Shown here piece after piece: positions 4,413 to 28,428 of a DNA stretch of 64,000 nucleotides. The stretch's first letter is position 1. The number at the start of each line of letters is the position of its first letter. The notes below the pieces were generated by a model, which was not told the DNA's origin, searched no databases, and was given only the letters and a program-made list of their open reading frames with translations. A program made the translations under genes and the position numbers. The DNA comes from Dictyostelium discoideum. Its lineage: Eukaryota. The stretch lies in NCBI GenBank assembly GCA_000004695.1, contig CM000154.2, positions 3,040,001 through 3,104,000 on the forward strand, in the 5' to 3' direction.

Positions 4413-5177
4413 TTATTTTGGCCACATTTGATAAGCACCAATTAATGCAGAAATTATACCAGAAATACCAATTGTACCTTGAGAGAATGGATAAATTTTT
4501 AATAAAGTTGAAGCAATGATTAAATCTGAACCATTCTTTGCACAATTTAAATAGATTTCATTCTTCTTTTTAATGACTTCATTGAATTGATCGATGATTG
4601 CTTTATTTTCGACTTCAGAGGTGATTGTATGAGTATCGATGTTATTATTATTTGCATTGATTTTATTTTGAGTGATTGTTAATCTGAGTGATTTCTCTTT
4701 CTTTAACATGATGGCCAATGTATTTAAATCGATAATGATTGAACATAATAAACCAAAGAACCAACTAACACTTGAATACCAACCCAATTTGACAGTATCA
4801 AATTTACATAAACCAATGTTGGTACCAAGGATTAAATGATCGAATACCCAATAGAAATACATTCCACTTTGTCTAATCAATGCTAGAATATTTAAAAAGG
4901 CAAATGGATTCTTTACTTTGAATAATGCTAAAATCTTTTGTTGCTCGGCCAATGTATTACCTAAACGCCATACTTTACGTGCTGATCCACTTGTTGTCTC
5001 TAATTTTTTCATAACATCAACCCAATGTTTTGATCTCTTTAAAAATATATATCCTAATAATTTGGCACCATATTGTAAAATCTTGGCAATCTTATCTTTA
5101 CCTGATGTTTGTGCTAAAAGTTTAATTAAACTTTCTAAAAATTGATTATAATTTGGTTTTGATAATATTCCTGCCAT
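4413..5177 (-). CDS. pex11: Peroxin-11 (PEX11) peroxisomal membrane protein
   Basis: The 254-aa product has the PEX11 N-terminal amphipathic region (KILQYGAKLLGY..WRLGNTLAEQQK~ human RLGNSADALESAK) and a C-terminal TM (IGISGIISALIGAY~IVGLCGLVSSIL). Single exon. Confidence 0.7.
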   Translation of the reverse strand: MAGILSKPNYNQFLESLIKLLAQTSGKDKIAKILQYGAKLLGYIFLKRSKHWVDVMKKLETTSGSARKVWRLGNTLAEQQKILALFKVKNPFAFLNILALIRQSGMYFYWVFDHLILGTNIGLCKFDTVKLGWYSSVSWFFGLLCSIIIDLNTLAIMLKKEKSLRLTITQNKINANNNNIDTHTITSEVENKAIIDQFNEVIKKKNEIYLNCAKNGSDLIIASTLLKIYPFSQGTIGISGIISALIGAYQMWPK

Positions 5178-5339
5178 TTTTATTTTATTTTATTTTATTT
5201 TATTTATTTATTTATATAAATAGAGATTAAAAAAAAAAAAAAAAGTTTTTAATATATTTAAAAATTTCTTTTTTTTTTTTAATAAAGAAGTTGTATAAAA
5301 AAACAAAAAAAATAATAAAAAATAAAAAAAATATTTTTT

Positions 5340-5381
<42 letters not shown>

Positions 5382-5457
5382 AAAACAAAATAATAATTAT
5401 AATAATAACAATAAATAAATAAATAAATAAAAAATCAATATAGACTCAGAATTAGAA

Positions 5458-6178
5458 ATGGATATTGAAGATGCAAATTCTTTTTTTAATGGGAATCAAA
5501 ATACAAATATATTAGGTCAATCACCACGTCCAACTGGAATCCTAATGAAATTTATATTTTTATTTCATCCAATGTTATTATTCCTATTCATTTTACCAGG
5601 TGTTTTAACATTTTGGATATTATTTATTGCAGGTGAAAATTCAATTAAACCATTTATGTATATTATTTTCTTATTGGTTCCATTAGTATTTCAAATAGTT
5701 TTATTGATTTATCATTCACATTCATTTGTGTTTTTAAATTATGGTCTTCAAGCATTTTCACGTAAATGTAATTAAATAATTTATTATTATTTATTTAAAC
5801 TCTTTTTTAAACATAAAAATAAATATTTTAATTATACTAATGTTTTTTTTTTTTATTTTATTTAAAATTTTAGATAATAATAATTCATCAGATCAATATA
5901 CACAATTATATCAATTAGTTGATATGCAATCAGGTAGTGTTGTAACTTTATTAGATCAAAGAATAGCAGATGAAAGGGCAATGTATCTATATATACCAAT
6001 TTCAAAAGAAGTTTTCAATATGTCTTATTACGAATCAACATTTAGAGTTAATTCGCTTGGTCATTGGCAAGTTGTTCTAACTTGGAAAGCATTACTTAGT
6101 TTCTTTGTTTGTGGTATAATGTTGGTTGAATTTATTTTACTATTCGTTTTAAGAAATTGGTTTTTATTATTATTTTAA
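5458..6178 (+). CDS. hypothetical multi-pass membrane protein (2 exons: 5458..5761, 5874..6178)
   Basis: Two ORF-track ORFs join through a 112-nt intron (donor GTAAAT at 5762, acceptor tttTAG at 5873). The split codon c|at keeps the frame. Both exons are hydrophobic, and poly-A/T flanks are typical of intergenic DNA. Confidence 0.45.
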
Positions 6179-6180
6179 AT

Positions 6181-6186
6181 TATAAA

Positions 6187-6280
<94 letters not shown>

Positions 6281-6290
6281 TTAATAATAA
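6181..6290. repeat. (AAT)n microsatellite, about 35 units, intergenic
   Basis: Direct read. Confidence 0.9.
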
Positions 6291-6499
6291 TTAAAAAAAA
6301 AAAAAAAAAAAAAAAAAGAAAAAAAAAACACAACAATAACATTCAAGAAATTAGAAAAAAAAAAAAAAAAAAACAAATATACCTATATATGTATATTTGT
6401 GAATAGTTTCAATTATTTTTTTTTCCTAAAAAATAAACTTATCAAAACATTGTACATATTTTTCAAAATAAAATTAAAGTTTATTATTATTATTATTAT

Positions 6500-12227: not shown

Positions 12228-12861
12228 TGTGTATTTTTGATTTAAAAAAAAACAAAAAAAAAAAAAAATTTTTAAAAAAATAATTCATCAAAAAAGAAAA
12301 ATTAAAATAATTCTTTTTTTAAAATTTTTTTTTTTTTAAAATTTTCGAGTAGAAAAAAAATGAACTTCCTGTCAGATAAAAACGCGGTTATGAAATTATT
12401 TTTTTTTTGATTTAATTTTTTTTTTTTTTTGAAAAATAAAAAAAATAGATATTTTTAATTGATAAAATAAAAATTTTAAAAAATAATAGTAATTATTTTG
12501 TTTTATTTAAAATTTTTTTATTTAAAAATAAATAAATATAAAAATGAGATATTATTTTTTTTTTTTTTTTTTTTATTTTTTTTTTTTTTAATATCCAATA
12601 AAAAAACAGAAAATAAAAAAAAAAAAATTTATCAAATAAAAAAGAAATTTTAAATTTCCAAAATCTTTTATTTTTTATTCATTTTTCTAAATAATTTAAT
12701 TTTTTTTCTTTTTTTTTTTTTTTTTTTTGAAAACTATTAATTAAATTTTGGTTAAAAATAGTTTTCTTAAAAAAAAAAAAAAGAAAAAAAGAAATATATA
12801 TTTGAACAGAGTTTACTTTTATTTTTATTTTTTTTTTTTTTTTTAAAAAAGCTAAAGAAAA

Positions 12862-13733
12862 TCAATTAAAAAAAACACAGATTAAAGCAAAAGAAATTAT
12901 TGAATTAAAATAGGAAGCTTTAGAATTTGGATGTGGTGATGGTGATGAAGATAATGAAGAAGATGATGATGAAGAAGAGGATGATGATGAAGAATTAACA
13001 ATAAAATTTGTAGTTTTTAATTGTGTTGGATATTGGTATGTATAAATAATTTCAAATTGATTTGATAGATATTGTTTATTATTTGTTTTACAAGTCCATT
13101 GTTTAAAATCAACTTGTACAAAACATTTTAAACTTTCAGATATTGTACCATTATTAAATTTTCCAGTAATTGTCATACCATTATCTTTTGTAGCAATACC
13201 ATTTCTTGGTAATAATGCATCACCTTTGATTGTAATTATATCTTTATTTATATCAATTTCTGATATAGCTTGTTCATTGAATGAAATGGTTACATTTGAA
13301 TCGTAAACACCACCACTTGTTAAAACTGAGTCATTTGAAAATAAAAAGTTAATTACAACTGGTTCAGAAATTGTTAAATTCTTTGGAATTATACAAAAGA
13401 ATGGTCCTCTTATATTACCACCACCTTTTGGAATTACATTACAAGATAGACTAGTTTTTATATTATTTCTATCAATTAATGTTATTGTTGGATCTGGTGA
13501 AGCTATATTGAGTTGAGAGGTACCAGTGGTTAATTGTGATTGTTGATCTTCATTATAATAAAATGAATTTGAATTAATGACTGCACATTTTTTGGTTACA
13601 CTACTGTATGGACAAAATAGTGTAAAATCATATGAAAGATATTCAATAATAAAGCATCTATATTATTATAATTATAATTATTATTTATTTTAATTTTATT
13701 ATTAATTAATAAAAAAAAAAAAATTAATAAAAA

Positions 13734-14508: not shown

Positions 14509-15419
14509 ATGAAGAAATTTACAATAGTTTTTTATTATTAATTTTTTTTTTTTTAAAAATTATTAGTTTATATATTTCTATTAAATTTTTTGTTATTAAA
14601 ATATAATAATTATATAGATGCTTTACTCCAGAATATTTTCCATTTAATAGTACACTACATTGTTCATACAATACTAAAACCAAAGAATGTGCAGTTATTA
14701 ATTCATTTTATTATAATGAAGATCAACAATCACAATTAACCACTAATACAAGTAGTAGACTTGGAGTTGCACCAGATCCAACACTAACTTTAATTGATGG
14801 AAATAATATAGCAACTAAATTATCATGCTATATATTCCAACTGGGTGGTGCTATGTTAAGAGGACCATCTTTTTGTGTAATTCCAAAGAATTTAACAATT
14901 TCTGAACCAATTATAATTAATTTTTTATTTCCAAATGGTTCACTTTTAACAACTGATGGTGTTTACGATTAAAATCAAACCATTTCATTCAATGAACAAG
15001 CTATATCAGAAATTGATATAAATAAAGATATAATTACAATCAAAGGTGATGCATTATTACCAAGAAATGGTATTGCTACAAAAGATAAATTTAATAATGG
15101 TACAATATCTGAAAGTTTAAAATGTTTGGTAGAAATTGATATTAAACAATGGACTTGTAAAACAAATAATCAAAAATATCTATCAAATCAATTTGAAATT
15201 ATTTATACATACCAATATCCAAAACAATTAAAAACTACAAATTTTATTGTTAATTCATCATCATCATCTTCATCATCATCTTCATCATCTTTTTCTTCAC
15301 CATCATCATATTCTTCATTATCCTCATCACCACCATCACATCCAAATTCTAAAGCTTCCTATTTTAATTCAATAATTTCTTTTGCTTTAATCTGTGTTTT
15401 TTTAATTGATTTTCTTTAG
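14509..15419 (+). pseudogene. degenerate inverted paralog of the 12862..13826 secreted Ser-rich protein gene
   Basis: Exon 2 (from acceptor atatAG at 14617) is collinear and about 85-90% identical to the minus-strand copy. It carries an in-frame TAA at 14970..14972 (TCA in the intact copy) and a 21-nt in-frame deletion (missing NGMTITG). The exon-1 equivalent (ATG 14509, MKKFTIVFYY*) has lost the signal-peptide frame and has no GT donor. Confidence 0.55.
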
Positions 15420-16781: not shown

Positions 16782-17175
16782 CTAAGGACGAGATTGATGT
16801 TGATGGTTTTTCATTTTATGATAATTATTTTCAATTGTATTGTTATTTTTATTATTCAAATTAATTCTTAAAATACGAATACTATTAATAATGGAATGAT
16901 TTAATTTTAAAGCATTTCGAATATCATTTATTAAATTTTCATTAAAAATTATGGTTTGTTTATTGTATTCTTTTAATTGTTTGGAATTATCTATATGAAC
17001 TTGGTTATTTAAAATTATTAATGATTCTTGATATTTTTTAATTATTTCAATTATACCTGTATCTACTTTAAAATCTTCACCCCCATCATAACATTCTTGA
17101 TTTTTATTGTTTATAATAAAATGATTTAACTTTTCAATGAATTTTTTATCATTATCCTCATATTTACTTTTATTT

Positions 17176-17270
<95 letters not shown>

Positions 17271-17843
17271 AAAATGTGATATTGCTTCATCAATTAATGA
17301 AGTAGTATGATTTTTTAATGTATCTGTTGTTTTAAGAGTATCGGTATTATTTTCTTGGTCATTAAAAATTGATAAGAGTTTTTCATTATCATGATTGATT
17401 GATGAATCCAAAGTTTGATTAATTAGTGTATTTGAATCGAATATGGTTTCTAGTTGTTTTTCAATATCATTTTCAATACATTGAACTGAAATATGAATTT
17501 TTTTCATTTCAGATTTTAACAAACTATTGTTTTTTTCATATTGAATTTTGATTTCATTGAATTTATCATTTGATTCTTGCAATATTTTTTCATTATTTTC
17601 AATCCTTTCAATTACTTTTGGAAATACATCATCTTTAAAACTATTAACAAATGAAAGAATATTTTTTATTGACTCTATTGGATCAGTTTTATGAGCATGG
17701 TGTTCTCCTTTACTTGATATACATATAATACAACATGGAATATATTTGCATTGTAAACATAATACTTTTATATTTTTACTTGGATGTAAAGCACACTTTT
17801 TTTTGTTATTAACTGGATTTTTATTATCAATGTTTGATGCCAT
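16782..17843 (-). CDS. B-box zinc finger protein (FNIP-less paralog of the B-box/FNIP family)
   Basis: The N-terminus [45 protein letters not shown] is almost identical to the B-box of gene 60059 ([44 protein letters not shown]). Coiled-coil and poly-N follow. It ends with a stop and no FNIP exon downstream. Confidence 0.6.
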
Positions 17844-18475
17844 TGTTAAAAGATTATATAATCAATATATTTAAAAAAAAACTAAAATTAAAATTAATAA
17901 AAATAAAAACCAACTTTTGTGGTTTGGCCTAAAAAAAAAAAAAATTAAAAATTAAAAATAAAAAATAAAATCATGATTTTATTTTCATCAAAAAAAAAAA
18001 TTAAATAAAATCAAAAAAATTGTTTTTTTTTGTTTTTTTTTTTATTTTTTTTTTATATTAATTTTATATGGAAAAAAAAAAATAGTGAAAAATTAAAAAA
18101 TAATTGATTATAATAAATTCATTATTAAATTATTTTATTATTTATTGTCATTTTTTTAAGATTTTTCTTTGGATCTCTTATTGGTTTAAACAAATTTATA
18201 ATATAGCCTACAACACACCATGTTTTGTGGTGTTTTTCTTGAACACTATCCATATCAATCGATCCTACTGAAAATTTATATCTTAGTGGCATACTTGTAA
18301 TAAATCATGATCAATTTTTATTTTTTATTTTTTATTTTTTTATTTTTATTTTTCAAATTACAAACAAACTTTGGGTGTTTTTTTTTTTAAAAAATAAAAT
18401 AGAATACTCAAATGGGTTGGAATAAATTTAAATCTTTTTTTTTTTCTTTCAAATTTTGAAAATGAAAAAATCGAG

Positions 18476-18612
18476 GTCAGATGGTGAAGTTACTTTTTTT
18501 TTGAATTGGATAACGCAATTATTAGTTGCTTCTCCTTGAGATACTAGATCCCATTTTATTTTTAGTTTTTTTTTTTTTTTTTTTTTTAAAGGGTGTATAA
18601 AAGAGGGGTTAG

Positions 18613-18657
<45 letters not shown>

Positions 18658-18929
18658 TTTCGAATTTTGAATTGTATTATTACTTTTGATTAAAACATCT
18701 TTTTTGTCCAAATTTTTTTCTAAATCTTTTTTTATTTTATCATCAGCTTCATGATTGATGTTGATGACATATTTGAATTGTTTTTTTTTTGTTTGAGTTT
18801 TATCCACAATTTCCCTTATTTTTTGTAGGCATTTGTGTTGCTTAATATTTGTGGGGTTGTTTGTAATTTTCATCTTTTTTTCTTTCTATTTTTTTTATTT
18901 TACTTTGAAAAGTTAAAAATCTGGAAATT
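18476..18929 (-). repeat. about 470-bp repeat unit, copy 1 (retroelement-associated module; continues across the N gap to about 19070)
   Basis: About 90% identical to 19386..19870. It starts with GGTCAGATGGTG (the first 12 nt of the tRNA-Val at 21365) fused to AAGTTACTT, and it is bounded by long poly-T. It carries the small ORF 18586..18873. Confidence 0.6.
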
Positions 18930-19029
18930 NNNNNNNNNNNNNNNNNNNNNNNNNNNNNNNNNNNNNNNNNNNNNNNNNNNNNNNNNNNNNNNNNNNNNNN
19001 NNNNNNNNNNNNNNNNNNNNNNNNNNNNN
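18930..19029. other. assembly gap (100 N)
   Basis: A run of N characters, conventionally a 100-bp scaffold gap placed inside the repeat. Confidence 0.95.
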
Positions 19030-19061
19030 TTGGAAATTTCCTGATTAACTTAGGTTCCCCG

Positions 19062-19113
<52 letters not shown>

Positions 19114-19385
19114 TTTTTTATTTTTTTTTTTTTTAAGTCTTTTTTATATGAAAAATGAAACAATCAAAAAAAGAGATTGTTGTTGTTGTTTGTTTTTTCG
19201 ATCTGATTATTTTTTGCTTTTTTTTTGAAAATTTTCAAAACGAAACAAATAATAAATTACAACAAAGTAAAAAGATGGCTTTTTAAAATAGTTTATTTAT
19301 TTATTTATTTGTTTTTTAAGTCTTTTTTATATGAAAAATGAAACAATCAAAAAAAGAGATTGTTGTTGTTTGTTTTTTTCGATCT

Positions 19386-19397
19386 CTGATGGTGAAG

Positions 19398-19438
<41 letters not shown>

Positions 19439-19526
19439 AATTGGATAACGCAATTATTAGTTGCTTCTCCTTGAGATGTTAGATCTCATTTTATTTTTAG
19501 TTTACAGGGTCTCTAAGAGGGGTTGG

Positions 19527-19565
<39 letters not shown>

Positions 19566-19855
19566 TTTCGAATTTTGAATTGTATTATTACTTTTGATTA
19601 AAACATCTTTTTTGTCCAAACTTTTTTCTAAATCTTTTTTTATTTTATCGTCTGGTTCGTGATTGATGTTTATGACGTATTTGAATTGTTTTTTTTTAAT
19701 TGAGTTTTATCCACAATTTCGCTTATTTTTTGTAGGCATTTGTGTTGCTTAATATTTGTGGTGTTGTTTGTGATTTTCATTTTATTTTCTTTCTATCTTT
19801 TTATTTTTCTTTAAAAAGTTAAAAATCTGGAAATTTTCTGATTAACTTGGGTTCC

Positions 19856-19870
<15 letters not shown>
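19386..19870 (-). repeat. about 470-bp repeat unit, copy 2 (frameshifted relative to copy 1)
   Basis: Collinear with copy 1, including GATGGTGAAGTTAC, TTGAATTGGATAACGCAATTATTAGTTGCTTCTCCTTGAGAT and the terminal CTGGAAATTTTCTGATTAACTTGGGTTCCCAGG. About 70-bp sub-repeats (AAGTCTTTTTTATATGAAAAATGAAACAATCAAAAAAAGAGATTGTTG..) lie at 19131..19200 and 19318..19386. Confidence 0.6.
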
Positions 19871-19908
<38 letters not shown>

Positions 19909-19970
19909 GGTGAAGTTTTTTTTTTTTTTTTAATAACATCACTCAATTTGAGTGTGTTCTAGGAGAGTTT

Positions 19971-20019
<49 letters not shown>

Positions 20020-20039
20020 CTTGTTATTCTTATTTTTTT

Positions 20040-20134
20040 TATTATTATTATTATTATTATATTATTATTATTATTATATTATTATTATTATATTATTATT
20101 ATTATTATATTATTATTATTATTATTATTGTTAT

Positions 20135-20169
<35 letters not shown>

Positions 20170-21330
20170 AGTAGTTGGTGTTATATGAGCAGTATGGTAT
20201 GAAGTGTTCCGGGATGTTTATGGTCATGAGTTTCGAGTTCCAGTTGTGGCTGAATTTTTCGAGTCTTCTTTTTATTGATGCGGTCCGATTGATTGACTCT
20301 CGGTTATCAGTGCATCTTAGTTCTTGACGTAGTTGTTTTTCTACTATCTTTCTTGTTCTATCCCATTCGGCATCTCTCGCTTTTTTGATTTTATGAATTA
20401 TTTGGTTCTCTGTTATTATTGTAGTGTTATCGTTGAATTTTATTTGATTTCTTCTGTACCATATCGATTCCATAATGGCTCCTATCAGATTTGATGAGAA
20501 TGGTGTGAGTAGTTTTCCGAGAACTTTTTCGCTCCATGGACCGTGGTAAGTGTTGTTGGAGTCTTTACAGACCTTTTGATAGATTGAGTCGATATTCTGT
20601 TTTATTGATTTGCATTCGAAGAAGATGTGCATAGACGATTCTTCTTCTTTACATGAGTGGCAATTCTCCCCATGGTGTTTTGGAAGTGCCTTGATTAGAT
20701 ATCTCCATGCTAAGTCTCTTCCTTTGATAGTTGTGATTGATCTGGCTTCTCTAAATGGTAGAATTGGGTGATTAATGTTCTTTTGAATCAGTTTTTGACC
20801 TGTTGTTGGCTGGTGTTTGTTCCATCCCTTGTATTTGATATCCATCATGTTTCTATAGATTACTTTTAATTTTTGTTTGTTTTCGTATTTGGGTTTGACT
20901 TGGTTTAGTTTGAGAGTTATTCGCTCTCTTGGGTGGTGCAACAACTTCCAGGCTTTCCAGCATTTGATGTGAATCCTTGATAGTGAGTTTTCTTTTTCCG
21001 ACTTCCAGACTTCCATATGTGGAGGGCAGTTCTGGTCGTCTTTTTCTCTGAGGTATTGTTCGTATATCCATGCTTTCTGGGCATTGGATCTGGTTGCCAT
21101 ATTCCAGAGTTCCAGGCCTCCAATTTCATAGTCTCTTCTGCTCCTTTCTTTTGAGATAGCCCACCTGTCCCCTTTGAATAACATGTTGGCATTAACGTTC
21201 TCCAGTTTCTTTATGTCATTTATTTCGTTGATGTATAGTTGGAATGTTAGTTGGGACAGGAGGTATGATTTGAGGATTGTGATTCTACCTTTTAGCGTTG
21301 ATGACACGCTCGAGTAGCATTGGTGAAGTT
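20040..21330 (-). mobile_element. 5'-truncated non-LTR (LINE-like, TRE-type) retrotransposon fragment: ORF2 C-terminal region, with a 3' poly(A) and (AAT)n tail
   Basis: The 380-aa ORF (20165..21307) has near-balanced base composition, unlike the host. It contains a Cys/His-rich motif (HHGENCHSCKEEESSMHIFFECKS) typical of the LINE ORF2 C-terminus. The stop is immediately followed by an A-run on the minus strand (T-run 20141..20166) and (AAT)n. It lies 5' of, and head-to-head with, tRNA-Val. Confidence 0.6.
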
Positions 21331-21364
21331 ACTTATAATACTACGATAGCAATAGATTTTGCAA

Positions 21365-21438
21365 GGTCAGATGGTGTAGTCGGTTATCACGGTTGCTTTA
21401 CACGCAACAGGTCTCGAGTTCGATCCTCGGTCAGATCA
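21365..21438 (+). tRNA. tRNA-Val (anticodon UAC)
   Basis: It folds as a cloverleaf: acceptor GGTCAGA/TCAGATC (one A-A mismatch at 5-68), D arm GTGT-AGTCGGTTA-TCAC, anticodon arm GTTGC-TTTACAC-GCAAC (anticodon TAC), variable loop AGGTC, T arm TCGAG-TTCGATC-CTCGG, discriminator A. The D arm (GTGT/TCAC) and the ACAC after the anticodon match eukaryotic tRNA-Val. Confidence 0.75.
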
Positions 21439-21464
21439 TATGTTGGTATAAATTTGTGTATTTT

Positions 21465-21513
21465 ACGAACTTCGGGTTTTACAGGTAAAAAAAAAAAAAC
21501 GAACTTCGGGTTT
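21465..21513 (+). mobile_element. minimal retroposition footprint: a 15-bp direct repeat (ACGAACTTCGGGTTT) flanking TACAGGT plus A12-13
   Basis: Perfect 15-bp direct repeats at 21465..21479 and 21499..21513 bracket a short sequence ending in poly(A), 27 bp downstream of the tRNA 3' end. This is a TSD plus poly(A) signature of target-primed reverse transcription. Confidence 0.45.
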
Positions 21514-21539
21514 AATGCCAATATTGATATAAGGAACAC

Positions 21540-22030
21540 AATTAATATTAAATGAATGCTGTTAAACCTGAATCAAAACTAACTTTATTTTTTCAGTTTT
21601 CATAGTTTTCGAGTTTTAGTTATTTTCGAGAAGTTTCTAAAATATATAAAACTAAATAAATTAATTATTTTTATTATTATTGTTTGCAACAGTTGGTTCA
21701 AAACATTGGTGGCAAATAACTAGATACAAAAACAATAAATGTTTTAATAGAATTACACCTATAATTCCTCCAAATATAATATATCATGAGGTTAACATAG
21801 ACTACTCAAAGAATACTTTGAAGGGTATAAATTTGTAAATTATAATTTCTATATAATGTCTTTGATAATTCATAACATTTGGATTCAGGTATAGTAATAA
21901 AAAATCAAAAAAATTAAATCAAACTGTTTAGAGACCCAAAAGATTTCCTAAACAAATAATAAAATTAAGAAAACTATTCAAGTGTCAGAGCTTCCAAACA
22001 TTTTTACTTTGACTAATTCATTTTATTAAT
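21540..22030. mobile_element. GC-richer non-host-like segment downstream of the tRNA (possible degenerate retroelement fragment)
   Basis: Its composition (about 35-40% GC, no homopolymer runs) contrasts with the flanking AT-rich DNA. There is no long ORF. It lies about 100 bp 3' of tRNA-Val, where Dictyostelium TRE3-type elements insert. Confidence 0.25.
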
Positions 22031-22302: not shown

Positions 22303-23884
22303 TTATCTTTTTTCTTTATTTAATTTTGAAATTGCCCAATAACCACTTACAAAAAAGAAACAAATCCACAATATAATAATACCAATACCTTTTTGAAGTG
22401 TCCAATCTTCAAGATTATAAAATTTTAAAACATCATTACCATTTGGGAATTGACAAAAATCATTTGGACATTCTAATGGATAATCTTTAAATTGAGCGAC
22501 CATTACAGTTGCATAACCATAGTATAAAGGATTTAACCAATGGATCCAACCAAAACTTTTTGGTAATTGTTTCACAGGAACTAAATGGCCCATAAATAGT
22601 AAAAAAGTAATTGAAATTGTTGTACCATAAATAAAAGTTAAATCAGATTTACCAGTTATATTAGAGATTGCAATAATATATAAATCTGATAATAAATTAA
22701 TTAAATATAAAATGAAATAAGTAATGAAAAAGCTTGAAAAATTCCATCTTAAATGATTAATTGTATAAACTAGTAATGATACGATTAAGGAAACCAAAAA
22801 TTGAATAAATGCTTCAGTTGTAATTGTTGATAGATAAAATGGTAGAGAATGATAAATTTTTGAAGCTCTTTCTGAATTGAAAACTTCACGATTTGATAAG
22901 AACAATGTAATACATGTAAATGGTATTAAGTTTAAAACTGCAATTAAAAAGAATAAAATACCAGAAATTTTTAAAACATCCTCTTGACTTGGTGATAATG
23001 TACCAAAACAGGCGGAAAATAATAAACCAATCATAAAACCACCAGATAAACGTGTAATATATTGAGTTGAATTTCTAAAGAAATCTTTGAAATTTCTATT
23101 CAATAAAATTTTATATTGATATAGTAATGAGCAACTTTTATTTGGTTCAATTGAACGATTAAAAGGTTGAATTCTTGAAACTGCCAACATATTATCTCTC
23201 CAATTGGTTTCCCATGATTCACAAATTTCTTCATAATGATCACATTCGGAAATTTCATGACATGTATCCAATATGAAATCTGCAGGATTTGTATAGTTTG
23301 GACATTGATATTGATTTGGTAATGATGAAAGATAATTTAAAACATCATTACCACAATAAATCATTCTACCTTTTAACATAATCATAATTTTATTAAATAA
23401 ATGATAAATTTCTGGACGTGGTTGATGAATTGAACAAATTACAGTTACACCTTTAATTACGGTTAAATTCATTAAAACTTTCATAACTTTTAAAGCATTT
23501 AATGAATCTAAACCACTTGTAGGTTCATCTAAAAATAATAAAGATGGATTTGTAACTAATGCACAACCAATTGAAACTCTTTTCTTTTCACCACCTGATA
23601 AACCTTTTACAATCATACCACCAGGTAAAATACCACCAATTTTTGATTTTGATTTTTTTGTTAAACCAATATCTTTTATTACTTGTTCAACAACTTTCCA
23701 TTTATCTTGATCACTTAAACCTGGTAATCTTAAATCTGCATGAAATTTTAAAGTTTCTTCAACTGTTGAAGTTTGTAATAATATTTCATCTTGAGTTACA
23801 TAAGAACAATACTAATTTAAATTTTAAAATAAAAAAAATTTAAAAAAATAAAAAATAATTAATATAATTAAATAAATAAATAAA

Positions 23885-26244: not shown

Positions 26245-28428
26245 TTATCTTTTTTCTTTATTAAATTTATAAAGTCCAATATAAGCTAAAATATAAAAAA
26301 ATGCTATCCAAATTGTTAAAATACCAATTGATTTATTATATTCCCAATTTTTTAAACCTAAAAATTCAATTAAATTATTACCATTCGAATAAAGACATGG
26401 TATTGGTGGTTGAGGACATTGAAATTCAAAATCTCTATATTGAATGATTACTATTGATGAGAAACCATAAAATAGATAATCAATATGATGAATCCAACCA
26501 AAACTATCAGGTAATGAATTAATTGGTACTAAAAATCCGGAGAATAATACCAATACTACTGATACACCTGTACAATATGAAAATGTTAAATCAACAGTTC
26601 CAGCAATATTTGACATTGCTATTACCATAAAAACTGATGCTAAAAATACCATATAAAATGAAATCAATGATAATATATATGCTTCAAATGACCATCGCAA
26701 ATGAACAATACAATAAATTATTGTTGTAATAATTAATACAACAAAGAATGATGATACAATTTCAATTAACATTGATCCTATAAAATAAGGAAATGGATGA
26801 TAGATTTTTGATGCCCTTTCAGAATTAAATAAAGTTCTAATTGAAACAAATGTTGAAATACTTGAATATGGTAATAAATTTAATGAAGTTATAATAAAGA
26901 AAAATAAAGCTGATACTGATTGAGCCTCATTTTGATCCAACCCATCATAACCAACTGTCCCAAAACATGCAGAGAACAATAATCCAATTAATATTGCAAT
27001 TACAATCTTTGAGAAAAACACTACCCTATTCCTCACAAAACTTTGATAACTTCTTTTTTGACAAACCCAATATTGATAAATGAAACCAACTCTCTTTGGT
27101 ATATCAATATTAATTGGATCATTGGAAATGGTTGGCTGTATTTCATGTTTCCAATATTTTTCCCATGTATCAACAGTTGTTGAATATTGAGATGGATTAT
27201 TAACAATTTCATCACATACATCCAATATGAAATCAGCAGGATTCATTTGTGGTGGACATTTATAATTTGAATCTATACTTGAGAGATATTCTAAAATATT
27301 TGAACCACTATAAACCATTCTCCCTTTTAATACAACCATAATATTACTAAATAAATAAAAAATTTCAGGACGTGGTTGATGTACTGAGCATACAACTGTT
27401 ACACCTTTCATTTTAGTTAACTCTAATAAAACTTTCATTACTTTTAATGAATTTAATGAATCTAAACCACTTGTAGGTTCATCTAAAAATAATAAAGATG
27501 GATTTGTAACTAATGCACATCCAATTGAAACTCTTTTCTTTTCACCACCTGATAATCCTTTTACTATCATACCACCCGGTAGAATACCACCAATTTTTGA
27601 ATTTAATTTTCTATCTAATCCAACATCTTTTAAAACTTGTTTAATTCTTATATCTTTTTCAGTATCTGTCATATCTGGTAACCTTAAATCTGCATGAAAT
27701 TTTAAAGTTTCATAAACTGTTGATGTTTCTAAAAACACCTCTTCTTGAGTTACATATGAACAAAACATTTTATAAGCTTCACCAATTTCTTTACCATTTA
27801 CTAATATTTTACCAGTGATTGTACCTGTTGATTTCCTATTTGCAAGTATATCCAATAATGTAGATTTACCACTACCTGATGGACCCATTAATGCAACCAT
27901 TTCACCTTTTTCAACAATACCACTAACATTTGATAAAATTGTTAATTCCTTCTCAATAATTCTATCAATTGGTAATTTATTAACTTGTGATTCAATATCT
28001 TCAATATCAATTTTACCAGATTCTAATTTTTTAATAATTTTTTTTTGTTCATTATATTTTTTATTTAAAACTTTATAACAAATATTTTCAAATGTAACTT
28101 GAACTCCAACATTATTATTAATATTAATAATTTCATTATCATTTGATCTACCATTAGTAATTTCATTATTAAAAGTACCACTTGAATCACTATTAATACT
28201 ATTCCTTCTATTTTCAATGTTTTTAATTTTTGTTTGAATTCCACTTTCAATATCTTTATTATTATTATTACTATTACTATTTAAATTTGAATTATCTGAA
28301 ATTAATTTTTCACTTAAATTGATTTGTGGTGTTTGTGGTGATAAAGAGAGTGATGATAATGAATATTCATTATTTGGTTGCTTTGGATGTAATGTATTTA
28401 TTACTTCGTTTTTAAATTGTTGTTGTTC

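Follow-up and report, generated by a model that had tools for sequence, protein, structure and literature searches.

A stack of TRE5 retrotransposons upstream of a tRNA-Val(UAC) gene in Dictyostelium discoideum

In the 64,000-nucleotide stretch of Dictyostelium discoideum DNA considered here (the window; contig CM000154.2, positions 3,040,001 to 3,104,000), one tRNA-Val(UAC) gene is preceded by a fragment of a retrotransposon open reading frame (ORF), two repeats of about 470 bp, a short copy of the tRNA 5' end and a run of 100 N. The question raised by this locus is how such pieces came to lie in front of a single tRNA gene. [quoted passage not shown] The elements are called E1 (18494..19389), E2 (19402..19906) and E3 (19918..21320) below, E3 being the nearest to the tRNA; coordinates are window positions unless a reference locus is named.

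The target gene lies on the plus strand at 21365..21438, where both ARAGORN and Rfam (RF00005, 54 bits, E=4e-10) support the tRNA-Val(UAC) proposed by a first-pass annotation of this DNA. It is the sole tRNA gene found in the window by ARAGORN, and orthologues are found in two further D. discoideum assemblies, L001 and L006. E1, E2 and E3 are all on the minus strand, with their 5' ends toward the plus-strand tRNA gene. Between the tRNA start and E3 lie 44 nt (interval 21321..21364, including a unique spacer at 21335..21364), and the reconstructed sites of E1 and E2 are at 44-46 nt. [quoted passage not shown] The first-pass annotation had recognized this Dictyostelium TRE5 arrangement, with a non-LTR ORF2 fragment placed head-to-head upstream of the tRNA gene beside other retroelement pieces; its distance of about 35 bp has to be replaced by 44 nt. 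A scan of the whole window with Rfam at the gathering threshold gave 0 matches and missed the tRNA-Val, which reached its 54 bits (gathering score 29) once a 3.4-kb slice was searched. The Rfam speed filters seem to lose it in this strongly AT-rich window (21% GC).

The boundaries of the three elements are marked by four same-strand copies of (GA)TGGTGAAGTT(AC), one per element boundary. On the plus strand, TGGTGAAGTT occurs at 18482, 19390, 19908 and 21321, as well as at two unrelated sites, for an expectation of 0.09 per window. TSD copy 1 (21321..21334), in front of the E3 5' end, consists of TGGTGAAGTT and of ACTT remaining from an older, longer TSD; it holds the motif GGTGAAGTTACTT, whose presence upstream of the tRNA had already been noticed and whose position is 21322..21334 rather than 21324..21336. 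Copy 2 (ATGGTGAAGTT, 19907..19917) is found between the E3 tail and the E2 5' end, copy 3 (GATGGTGAAGTTAC, 19388..19401) between E2 and E1, its first GA being ambiguous with the E1 start, and copy 4 (GATGGTGAAGTTAC, 18480..18493) is the outermost one and adjoins the original flank. Read on the minus strand from the spacer side, the junctions are ...TATTATAAGTAACTTCACCA|ATGCTACTCG at the E3 5' end, ...TTATTAA-A16-CTTCACCAT|TT-A45 between the E3 tail and the E2 5' end, ...A36-GTAACTTCACCATC|AGAGATCGAAAAA between the E2 tail and the start of E1, and ...CCAATTC-A9-GTAACTTCACCATC|TGACCTCGATTTTTTC between the E1 tail and the flank. Each element is thus enclosed by copies of one and the same TSD of 10-16 nt, and ends in its own oligo(A) tail (A9 in E1, A36 in E2 and A14-16 in E3). 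The TGGTGAAGTT motif lies outside the TRE5-A sequence, because four other TRE5-A copies continue after their tails into unrelated sequences.

The elements were identified by comparison with loci fetched as encoding relatives of either the E3 ORF or a small ORF inside the repeated modules. TRE5-A (formerly DRE) is laid out as AB-ORF1/ORF2-BC, with a 290-bp B-module that contains the ORF1 start and is duplicated into the 3' untranslated region (UTR), and a C-module that forms the 3' end (PMC3159450). Two loci cover this layout. Locus L005 provides the 5' half, in which tandem 198-bp AT-rich units beginning TCAGATCGAAAAAAAC (the A-modules) are followed by one incomplete unit, then by an A run with CCTGGGAACC...ATG behind it, and finally by a 444-amino-acid ORF1, the size of which fits the 51-kDa TRE5-A ORF1 protein (PMC5911963). 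Locus L004 provides the 3' half, composed of a 1047-amino-acid ORF2 with an RVT_1 domain, a stop, an A run, an CCTGGGAACC...ATG...TTCGAAAC block, a second A run and, as its last part, a block that terminates in GCGTTATCCAATTC+A10.

E1 and E2 match the A-, B- and C-modules of TRE5-A at 94-99% identity, and share with this element their location about 45 bp upstream of the tRNA, 5' ends facing it, as well as their oligo(A) tails and TSDs of 12-16 bp. E2 holds only an A45 run (19860..19904), a B-module (19565..19859), an A33 run (19532..19564), a C-module (19438..19531) and its A36 tail (19402..19437), all on the minus strand, and is 98.7% identical (457/463) to the B+C 3' end of the full-length TRE5-A.1 in L004. 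As its sequence begins within the A run located behind the ORF2 stop, E2 is a 5'-truncated TRE5-A, which accounts for its lack of an A-module; such truncation is typical of the element (PMC3159450). E1, also on the minus strand, is a TRE5-A that has kept its 5' end intact and bears an internal deletion. It comprises a full A-module (19207..19389) and a partial one (19135..19206), an A-rich run (19064..19134), a B-module with the first 60-70 codons of ORF1 (18657..19063), an A run (18618..18656), a C-module (18503..18617) and the A9 tail (18494..18502), the single B being joined to C with no ORFs between them. With the assembly gap removed, E1 shows 96.0% identity to L005 across the full A-module, the partial one, the A run and the B-module, its A-modules (about 200 bp in TRE5-A) matching the 198-bp tandem units at 96%, and it is 94.4% identical to the B+C of L004. 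A 99-nt direct repeat (19109/19292) corresponds to the A-module start being present twice. The peptide encoded in the B-module is the N-terminus of the 444-amino-acid ORF1. Both elements are non-autonomous, and E1 is shorter than TRE5-A.2 (AB-ORF1-BC), both ORFs being missing from its A-B-C form, for which no name was found in the TRE literature searched; the same literature yielded no mention of a TRE5-A.3.

The C-modules of E1 and E2 end GCGTTATCCAATTC+A(n), like those of four other copies. The TRE5-A C-module measures 134-137 bp and forms the 3' end before the oligo(A); those of E1 and E2 are shorter than the published 134 bp, mostly owing to the length of an internal A run. An assignment to deletion derivatives of TRE5-C, which also has a C-module, was rejected, as the identity of both C-modules to TRE5-A exceeds 94%, and is not about 78% as published for TRE5-C. 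In D. discoideum assemblies, short ORFs within TRE5-A B-modules, as well as the ORF2 fragment, carry annotations as hypothetical protein genes (window 18586..18873 and 20165..21184, both on the minus strand; proteins P0008-P0013), among them DDB_G0282561, DDB_G0280833 and a 339-amino-acid gene in L001. These small "genes" are retroelement fragments.

E3 is a 5'-truncated non-LTR element of a different family, also on the minus strand. Its coding part (20165..21320) is the C-terminal portion of ORF2; the ORF at 20165..21307 has 380 amino acids, its frame remains open to about 21328, and similarity to related elements continues to about 21320. The ORF2 identity given in the first-pass annotation is supported. 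A TRE5 ORF2 has APE, RT (reverse transcriptase) and zinc-finger domains; the fragment holds only the post-RT portion (E1 and E2 having no ORF2), with a CX2CX7HX4C motif, a CCHC zinc knuckle, and matched no Pfam domain. Its relatives in the database are D. discoideum and D. dimigraforme proteins bearing RVT_1. By tblastn, it is 80% identical in amino acids to the ORF2 of a full-length element at locus L002, 55% to a 5'-truncated element at locus L003, and 36% over 387 amino acids to the TRE5-A ORF2 of L004, all three comparators being TRE5-type elements placed head-to-head with tRNA genes. The ORF is also GC-richer than its surroundings, as had been remarked: its GC fraction of 0.386 is the highest among the long ORFs of the window (0.16-0.32 for the others).

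The 3' end of E3 has the same layout as L002 13651..13849, with a 3' UTR that combines A runs with an (AAT)n microsatellite (19978..20164), a conserved terminal stem-loop (19932..19977) and an A14-16 tail (19918..19931). In the L002 element, the A runs that come after the stop are internal, as is the AT-rich microsatellite, and E3 therefore spans 19918..21320. The stretch of poly(A) and (AAT)n (20040..20165), previously taken for the tail, thus belongs to the internal 3' UTR, the element ending at 19918 and not at 20040. The L002 3' end reads ...AAATAAACTCTCCTAGAACACAC(C/T)CAAATTG(G/A)GTGATGTTATTAA+A(n), with a matching sequence at 19932..19977 in the window, and E3 terminates ...CTCCTAGAACACACTCAAATTGAGTGATGTTATTAA+A(n), like the second element of L002, with no C-module. 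The lack of a C-module at the 3' end characterizes TRE5-B, unlike TRE5-A and TRE5-C (PMC3159450). E3 differs in this from TRE5-C, and shares with TRE5-B this missing module (PMC3159450), the TRE5 position and orientation, and the zinc knuckle in the ORF2 C-terminus. The ORF1 of the full-length L002 relative is 30% identical to that of TRE5-A, a value that would suit TRE5-B (published figure about 25%) without settling the matter. E3 is provisionally named TRE5-B-like on these two sequence features, and it may, given its 80% and 55% identities to L002 and L003, represent a subfamily. TRE5-B-like 3' ends share the stem-loop CAC(T/C)C-AAATT-G(A/G)GTG (window 19932..19977, L002 13790..13838 and L003 11545..11593), in which two base pairs are kept by two-sided changes among the three sequences, a feature analogous to the essential hairpin in the TRE5-A C-module.

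From these boundaries, together with the literature on TRE5, we infer the order of insertion and the mechanism of integration. TRE5 is described as recognizing the RNA polymerase III (Pol III) transcription complex on a tRNA gene, and as integrating by target-primed reverse transcription (TPRT) about 47 bp upstream, 5' end toward the tRNA. Here, E1 (a TRE5-A, A-B-C, without ORFs) would have inserted first, E2 (a TRE5-A cut to B+C) second, and E3 (a 5'-truncated TRE5-B-like element keeping the last third of ORF2) third. Because the insertion site is measured from the tRNA, each newcomer would enter the tRNA-proximal TSD copy and duplicate the target site anew, so that the oldest element would be the farthest from the tRNA. 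The outer E1 is more diverged from the TRE5-A references (94-96% identity) than the inner E2 (98.7%), a difference in agreement with E1 being the older of the two.

The same serial TSD pattern is also present at two further D. discoideum tRNA loci. At L002, TTCATTACAAA occurs three times around two stacked elements located 46-48 nt from a tRNA-Phe gene, and at L003, three copies of TATACATTCT flank a 5'-truncated element and a TRE5-A stub reduced to the C-module, 45 nt from a tRNA-Leu gene. One or more TREs are associated with 61% of the tRNA genes of this species (PMC5006619), and the locus fits the TRE biology already described for D. discoideum. Yeast Ty1 and Ty3 similarly re-use Pol III genes as safe landing pads, forming clusters of elements; they are, however, LTR elements that rely on an integrase, whereas E1-E3 are non-LTR elements associated with TPRT, a strict orientation and one re-duplicated TSD. 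The significance of the locus is mostly a matter of annotation, as a clean example of a TRE5 pile-up that re-duplicated a single target site.

A second line of evidence comes from L006 (GCA_054859355.1, 8425..10001), in which the gene order is the same (ABC transporter, tRNA-Val, B-box and PEMT genes) as at the window locus on chromosome 5, where the ABC gene is abcG-like, while the interval between the ABC and B-box genes is 1.6 kb, against 4.3 kb in L001, i.e., about 2.7 kb less DNA. No TRE sequence was found at this orthologous locus, where all four insertions (the three TRE5 elements and a downstream stub described below) are absent. They are, thus, polymorphic between D. discoideum lineages, and for this reason could be used as strain markers. 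The L006 lineage is fairly diverged, with a B-box protein that is 78% identical and indels in the upstream spacer. Other routes to alleles added little: the protein of the E3 ORF2 fragment occurs in one assembly only, the loci reached via proteins P0015 and P0018 are paralogous rather than allelic, and a metagenome scan for AGGTCAGATGGTGAAGTTAC gave 0 matches and was uninformative.

The gap inside E1 is explained by L001 (GCA_054883475.1), a 5.29-Mb D. discoideum contig that was reached via the intron-less B-box gene at 16782..17843 in the window. Over 21 kb, it matches the window at 99.8% identity, and it contains no N. The 100-N run (18930..19029) lies within the E1 B-module, and L001 reads across it without a break as ...AAAAATC|TGGAAATTTCC... 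(also written TGGAAATTTCCTGATTAAC). The window has ...AAAAATCTGGAAATT, N100 and TTGGAAATTTCC... around the gap, with flanks that overlap by about 9 nt, giving a true gap length of about -9 nt. Because of this overlap, the segment 18922..19030 (100 N and a redundant TGGAAATT/T overlap) is an assembly artefact that hides no repeat copy. Contrary to the first-pass annotation, which saw a repeat that the assembler could not resolve, the gap is closed with no extra sequence, and the 100 N and about 9 adjacent redundant bases can be removed. The remaining differences between the window and L001 in this region are limited to homopolymer lengths.

The short copy of the tRNA 5' end requires a separate account. 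The stretch AGGTCAGATGGTGaAGTtacTTAT (18474..18497, plus strand) matches tRNA positions -1..+23 at 20 of 24 nt, the first 13 being exact, and the 13-mer AGGTCAGATGGTG is found in the window at 18474 and 21364 only, for an expectation of 0. In the first-pass annotation, the first repeat copy was said to begin with the first 12 nt of the tRNA. The 12-mer is indeed there (from 18475, not 18476), but it does not mark an element boundary. The flank through ...AAAAATCGAG is common to the window and to the element-free L006, and AGGTCAGATGGTG is, therefore, made of 7 nt of original flank followed by 6 nt of TSD (5-6 nt for the 12-mer). Only the outermost TSD copy bears the GGTCAG part, the inner ones being bounded by the A-module start or an A run. 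The match is not due to chance, yet it is no element junction. Considering the known mechanism, the E1 cDNA would be primed from the plus-strand 3' end just after ...GAAGTTAC(TT), and sequence lying left of the TSD would not be made during integration; the outermost TSD, running into a flank that resembles a tRNA, would then give the appearance of a tRNA 12-mer fused to a repeat. The reconstructed empty site reads ...TCGAGGTCAGATGGTGAAGTTACTTATAATACTACGATAGCAATAGATTTTGCA followed by the tRNA, with the tRNA-like stretch 51 bp upstream of the tRNA start and the TRE5 target site falling within that stretch. If the insertions were serial, a close empty allele would read ...AAATCGAGGTCAGATGGTGAAGTTACTTATAATACTACG...tRNA, and if the 12-mer predates every element, an empty-site allele would read ...TCGAGGTCAGATGGTGAAGTTACTTATAAT...

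As to where this stretch comes from, a relic of the 5' part of a second, decayed tRNA-Val gene, or a partial duplication of the tRNA, older than the insertions and compatible with them, is slightly favoured. The 20/24 match, whose similarity ends at tRNA -1/+1, and the location within a flank not synthesized by TPRT are consistent with such a relic. Against it, L006 shows no clear counterpart, just a weak CATCATTGGTAATGG; neither a B-box nor a 3' half is present; and, although a second tRNA gene or a tRNA-derived SINE would be expected to fold like a tRNA and to have A and B boxes, no tRNA was called by ARAGORN or Rfam (E<=1) at 18400..18600, the similarity ending after 24 nt. Alternatively, the 24-mer could be the footprint of an undescribed process by which some 24 nt from the start of a tRNA (or its gene) are copied to the TRE5 target position, e.g., an abortive retro-insertion or a repair event at the Pol III complex. 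This is very improbable, and would predict similar footprints upstream of other tRNA genes.

Two other explanations of the whole arrangement have to be weighed against three serial insertions. In the model put forward in the first-pass annotation, recombination took place between elements that had inserted at different tRNA-Val loci, or a template switch occurred during reverse transcription, fusing the tRNA 12-mer to a repeat and spreading GGTGAAGTTAC. The exact 13-mer AGGTCAGATGGTG, shared by 18474 and the tRNA start where none is expected, speaks in its favor, as does the existence of apparently chimeric TRE5-A copies, such as L002 5129..6593, which joins a foreign GC-rich 5' part to B- and C-modules within one TSD pair. 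However, the 13-mer spans untouched flank and TSD, and its left side would not have been synthesized by E1 TPRT; the adjoining flank is shared with L006, and the GGTCAG part is confined to the outermost copy. In addition, a template switch onto a tRNA would copy its 3' end and not its first 12 nt, and simple serial TSDs are seen at the two other loci. Such an exchange is thus very improbable, and the repeated GATGGTGAAGTTAC is better read as a single target site re-duplicated by three successive insertions.

The other explanation concerns the two 470-bp repeats, which had been described as duplicated modules and could derive from a local segmental duplication of about 908 bp, or from unequal crossing-over, of one TRE5-A insertion. 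The two copies do exist, as direct repeats 908 bp apart with TSD-like ends in common and about 88% identity over 436 columns in blastn (the only usable pair, since an unmasked comparison of the region with the window was flooded by A/T low-complexity matches). Nevertheless, E2 is 98.7% identical to a TRE5-A on another contig and only about 88% to E1; E1 has A-modules and an A9 tail, while E2 is 5'-truncated and has an A36 tail; and each has its own poly(A)/TSD junction. A local duplication is, therefore, hardly credible, and each 470-bp unit represents the B+C modules of a TRE5-A copy that inserted independently of the other.

Several points weigh against the three serial insertions or against details of that account. 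Neither a clean-empty allele nor an allele with just one or two of the elements was recovered, and, as the L006 upstream spacer is longer and indel-diverged, the reconstructed pre-insertion sequence is not directly confirmed. E3 belongs to another family, and its age is not comparable with those of E1 and E2. The name "TRE5-B-like" depends on the absent C-module and on the ORF1 identity of a relative, and is to be taken as provisional. E1 may have entered as an A-B-C RNA, or may have lost its ORFs later through recombination between its two B-modules. [quoted passage not shown]

Downstream of the tRNA gene, a fourth insertion is visible as a stub, TACAGGT+A13 (21480..21499, plus strand), at a distance of 41 nt and with the orientation of the tRNA. 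A 14-bp TSD, CGAACTTCGGGTTT (21466..21479 and 21500..21513, plus strand), bounds the stub. At the corresponding site, L006 has a single CGAACTTCGGATTT, directly followed by AAT, where the window has CGAACTTCGGGTTT-TACAGGT-A13-CGAACTTCGGGTTT. TRE3 elements are found 40-150 bp downstream of a tRNA gene, with the orientation of that gene (PMC5911963). The stub shares this distance and orientation, and differs in that only 7 nt (TACAGGT) of the element are left; it looks like an extremely 5'-truncated TRE3-type insertion, whose family cannot be assigned from so short a sequence.

Elsewhere in the window, two diverged repeat pairs were observed (12852..13678 vs 14595..15419, and 23251..23819 vs 27205..27772), one inverted with 84% identity and one direct with 82% identity. 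They probably reflect neighboring paralogous genes, of the B-box/FNIP and ABC-transporter types.

Among the reference loci, L002 5129..6593, located 48 bp upstream of the tRNA-Phe gene within a single TTCATTACAAA TSD pair, carries about 490 nt of GC-rich sequence that starts GCCCTGATAGTGCAGTGGTAAAG and is fused directly to the middle of a TRE5-A B-module, followed by a C-module. No Rfam family was matched by this segment. The copy may be chimeric or the product of 5' transduction, or the segment may be a 5' end belonging to another TRE family. The GC-rich part (5129..5621) was considered as an A-module, together with an assignment of the window "X" repeats to a TRE5-B/C 5' UTR; both were dropped, since the A-module of L005 is an AT-rich 198-bp tandem unit, of which X is the start. 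Within the same copy, between the B- and C-modules, lies an insertion of about 575 bp (5826..6400) that resembles a miniature inverted-repeat transposable element, with terminal inverted repeats of about 22 bp (GGACCTATCAGTGAATAATTGA ... TCAATTATTCACTGATAGGTCC).

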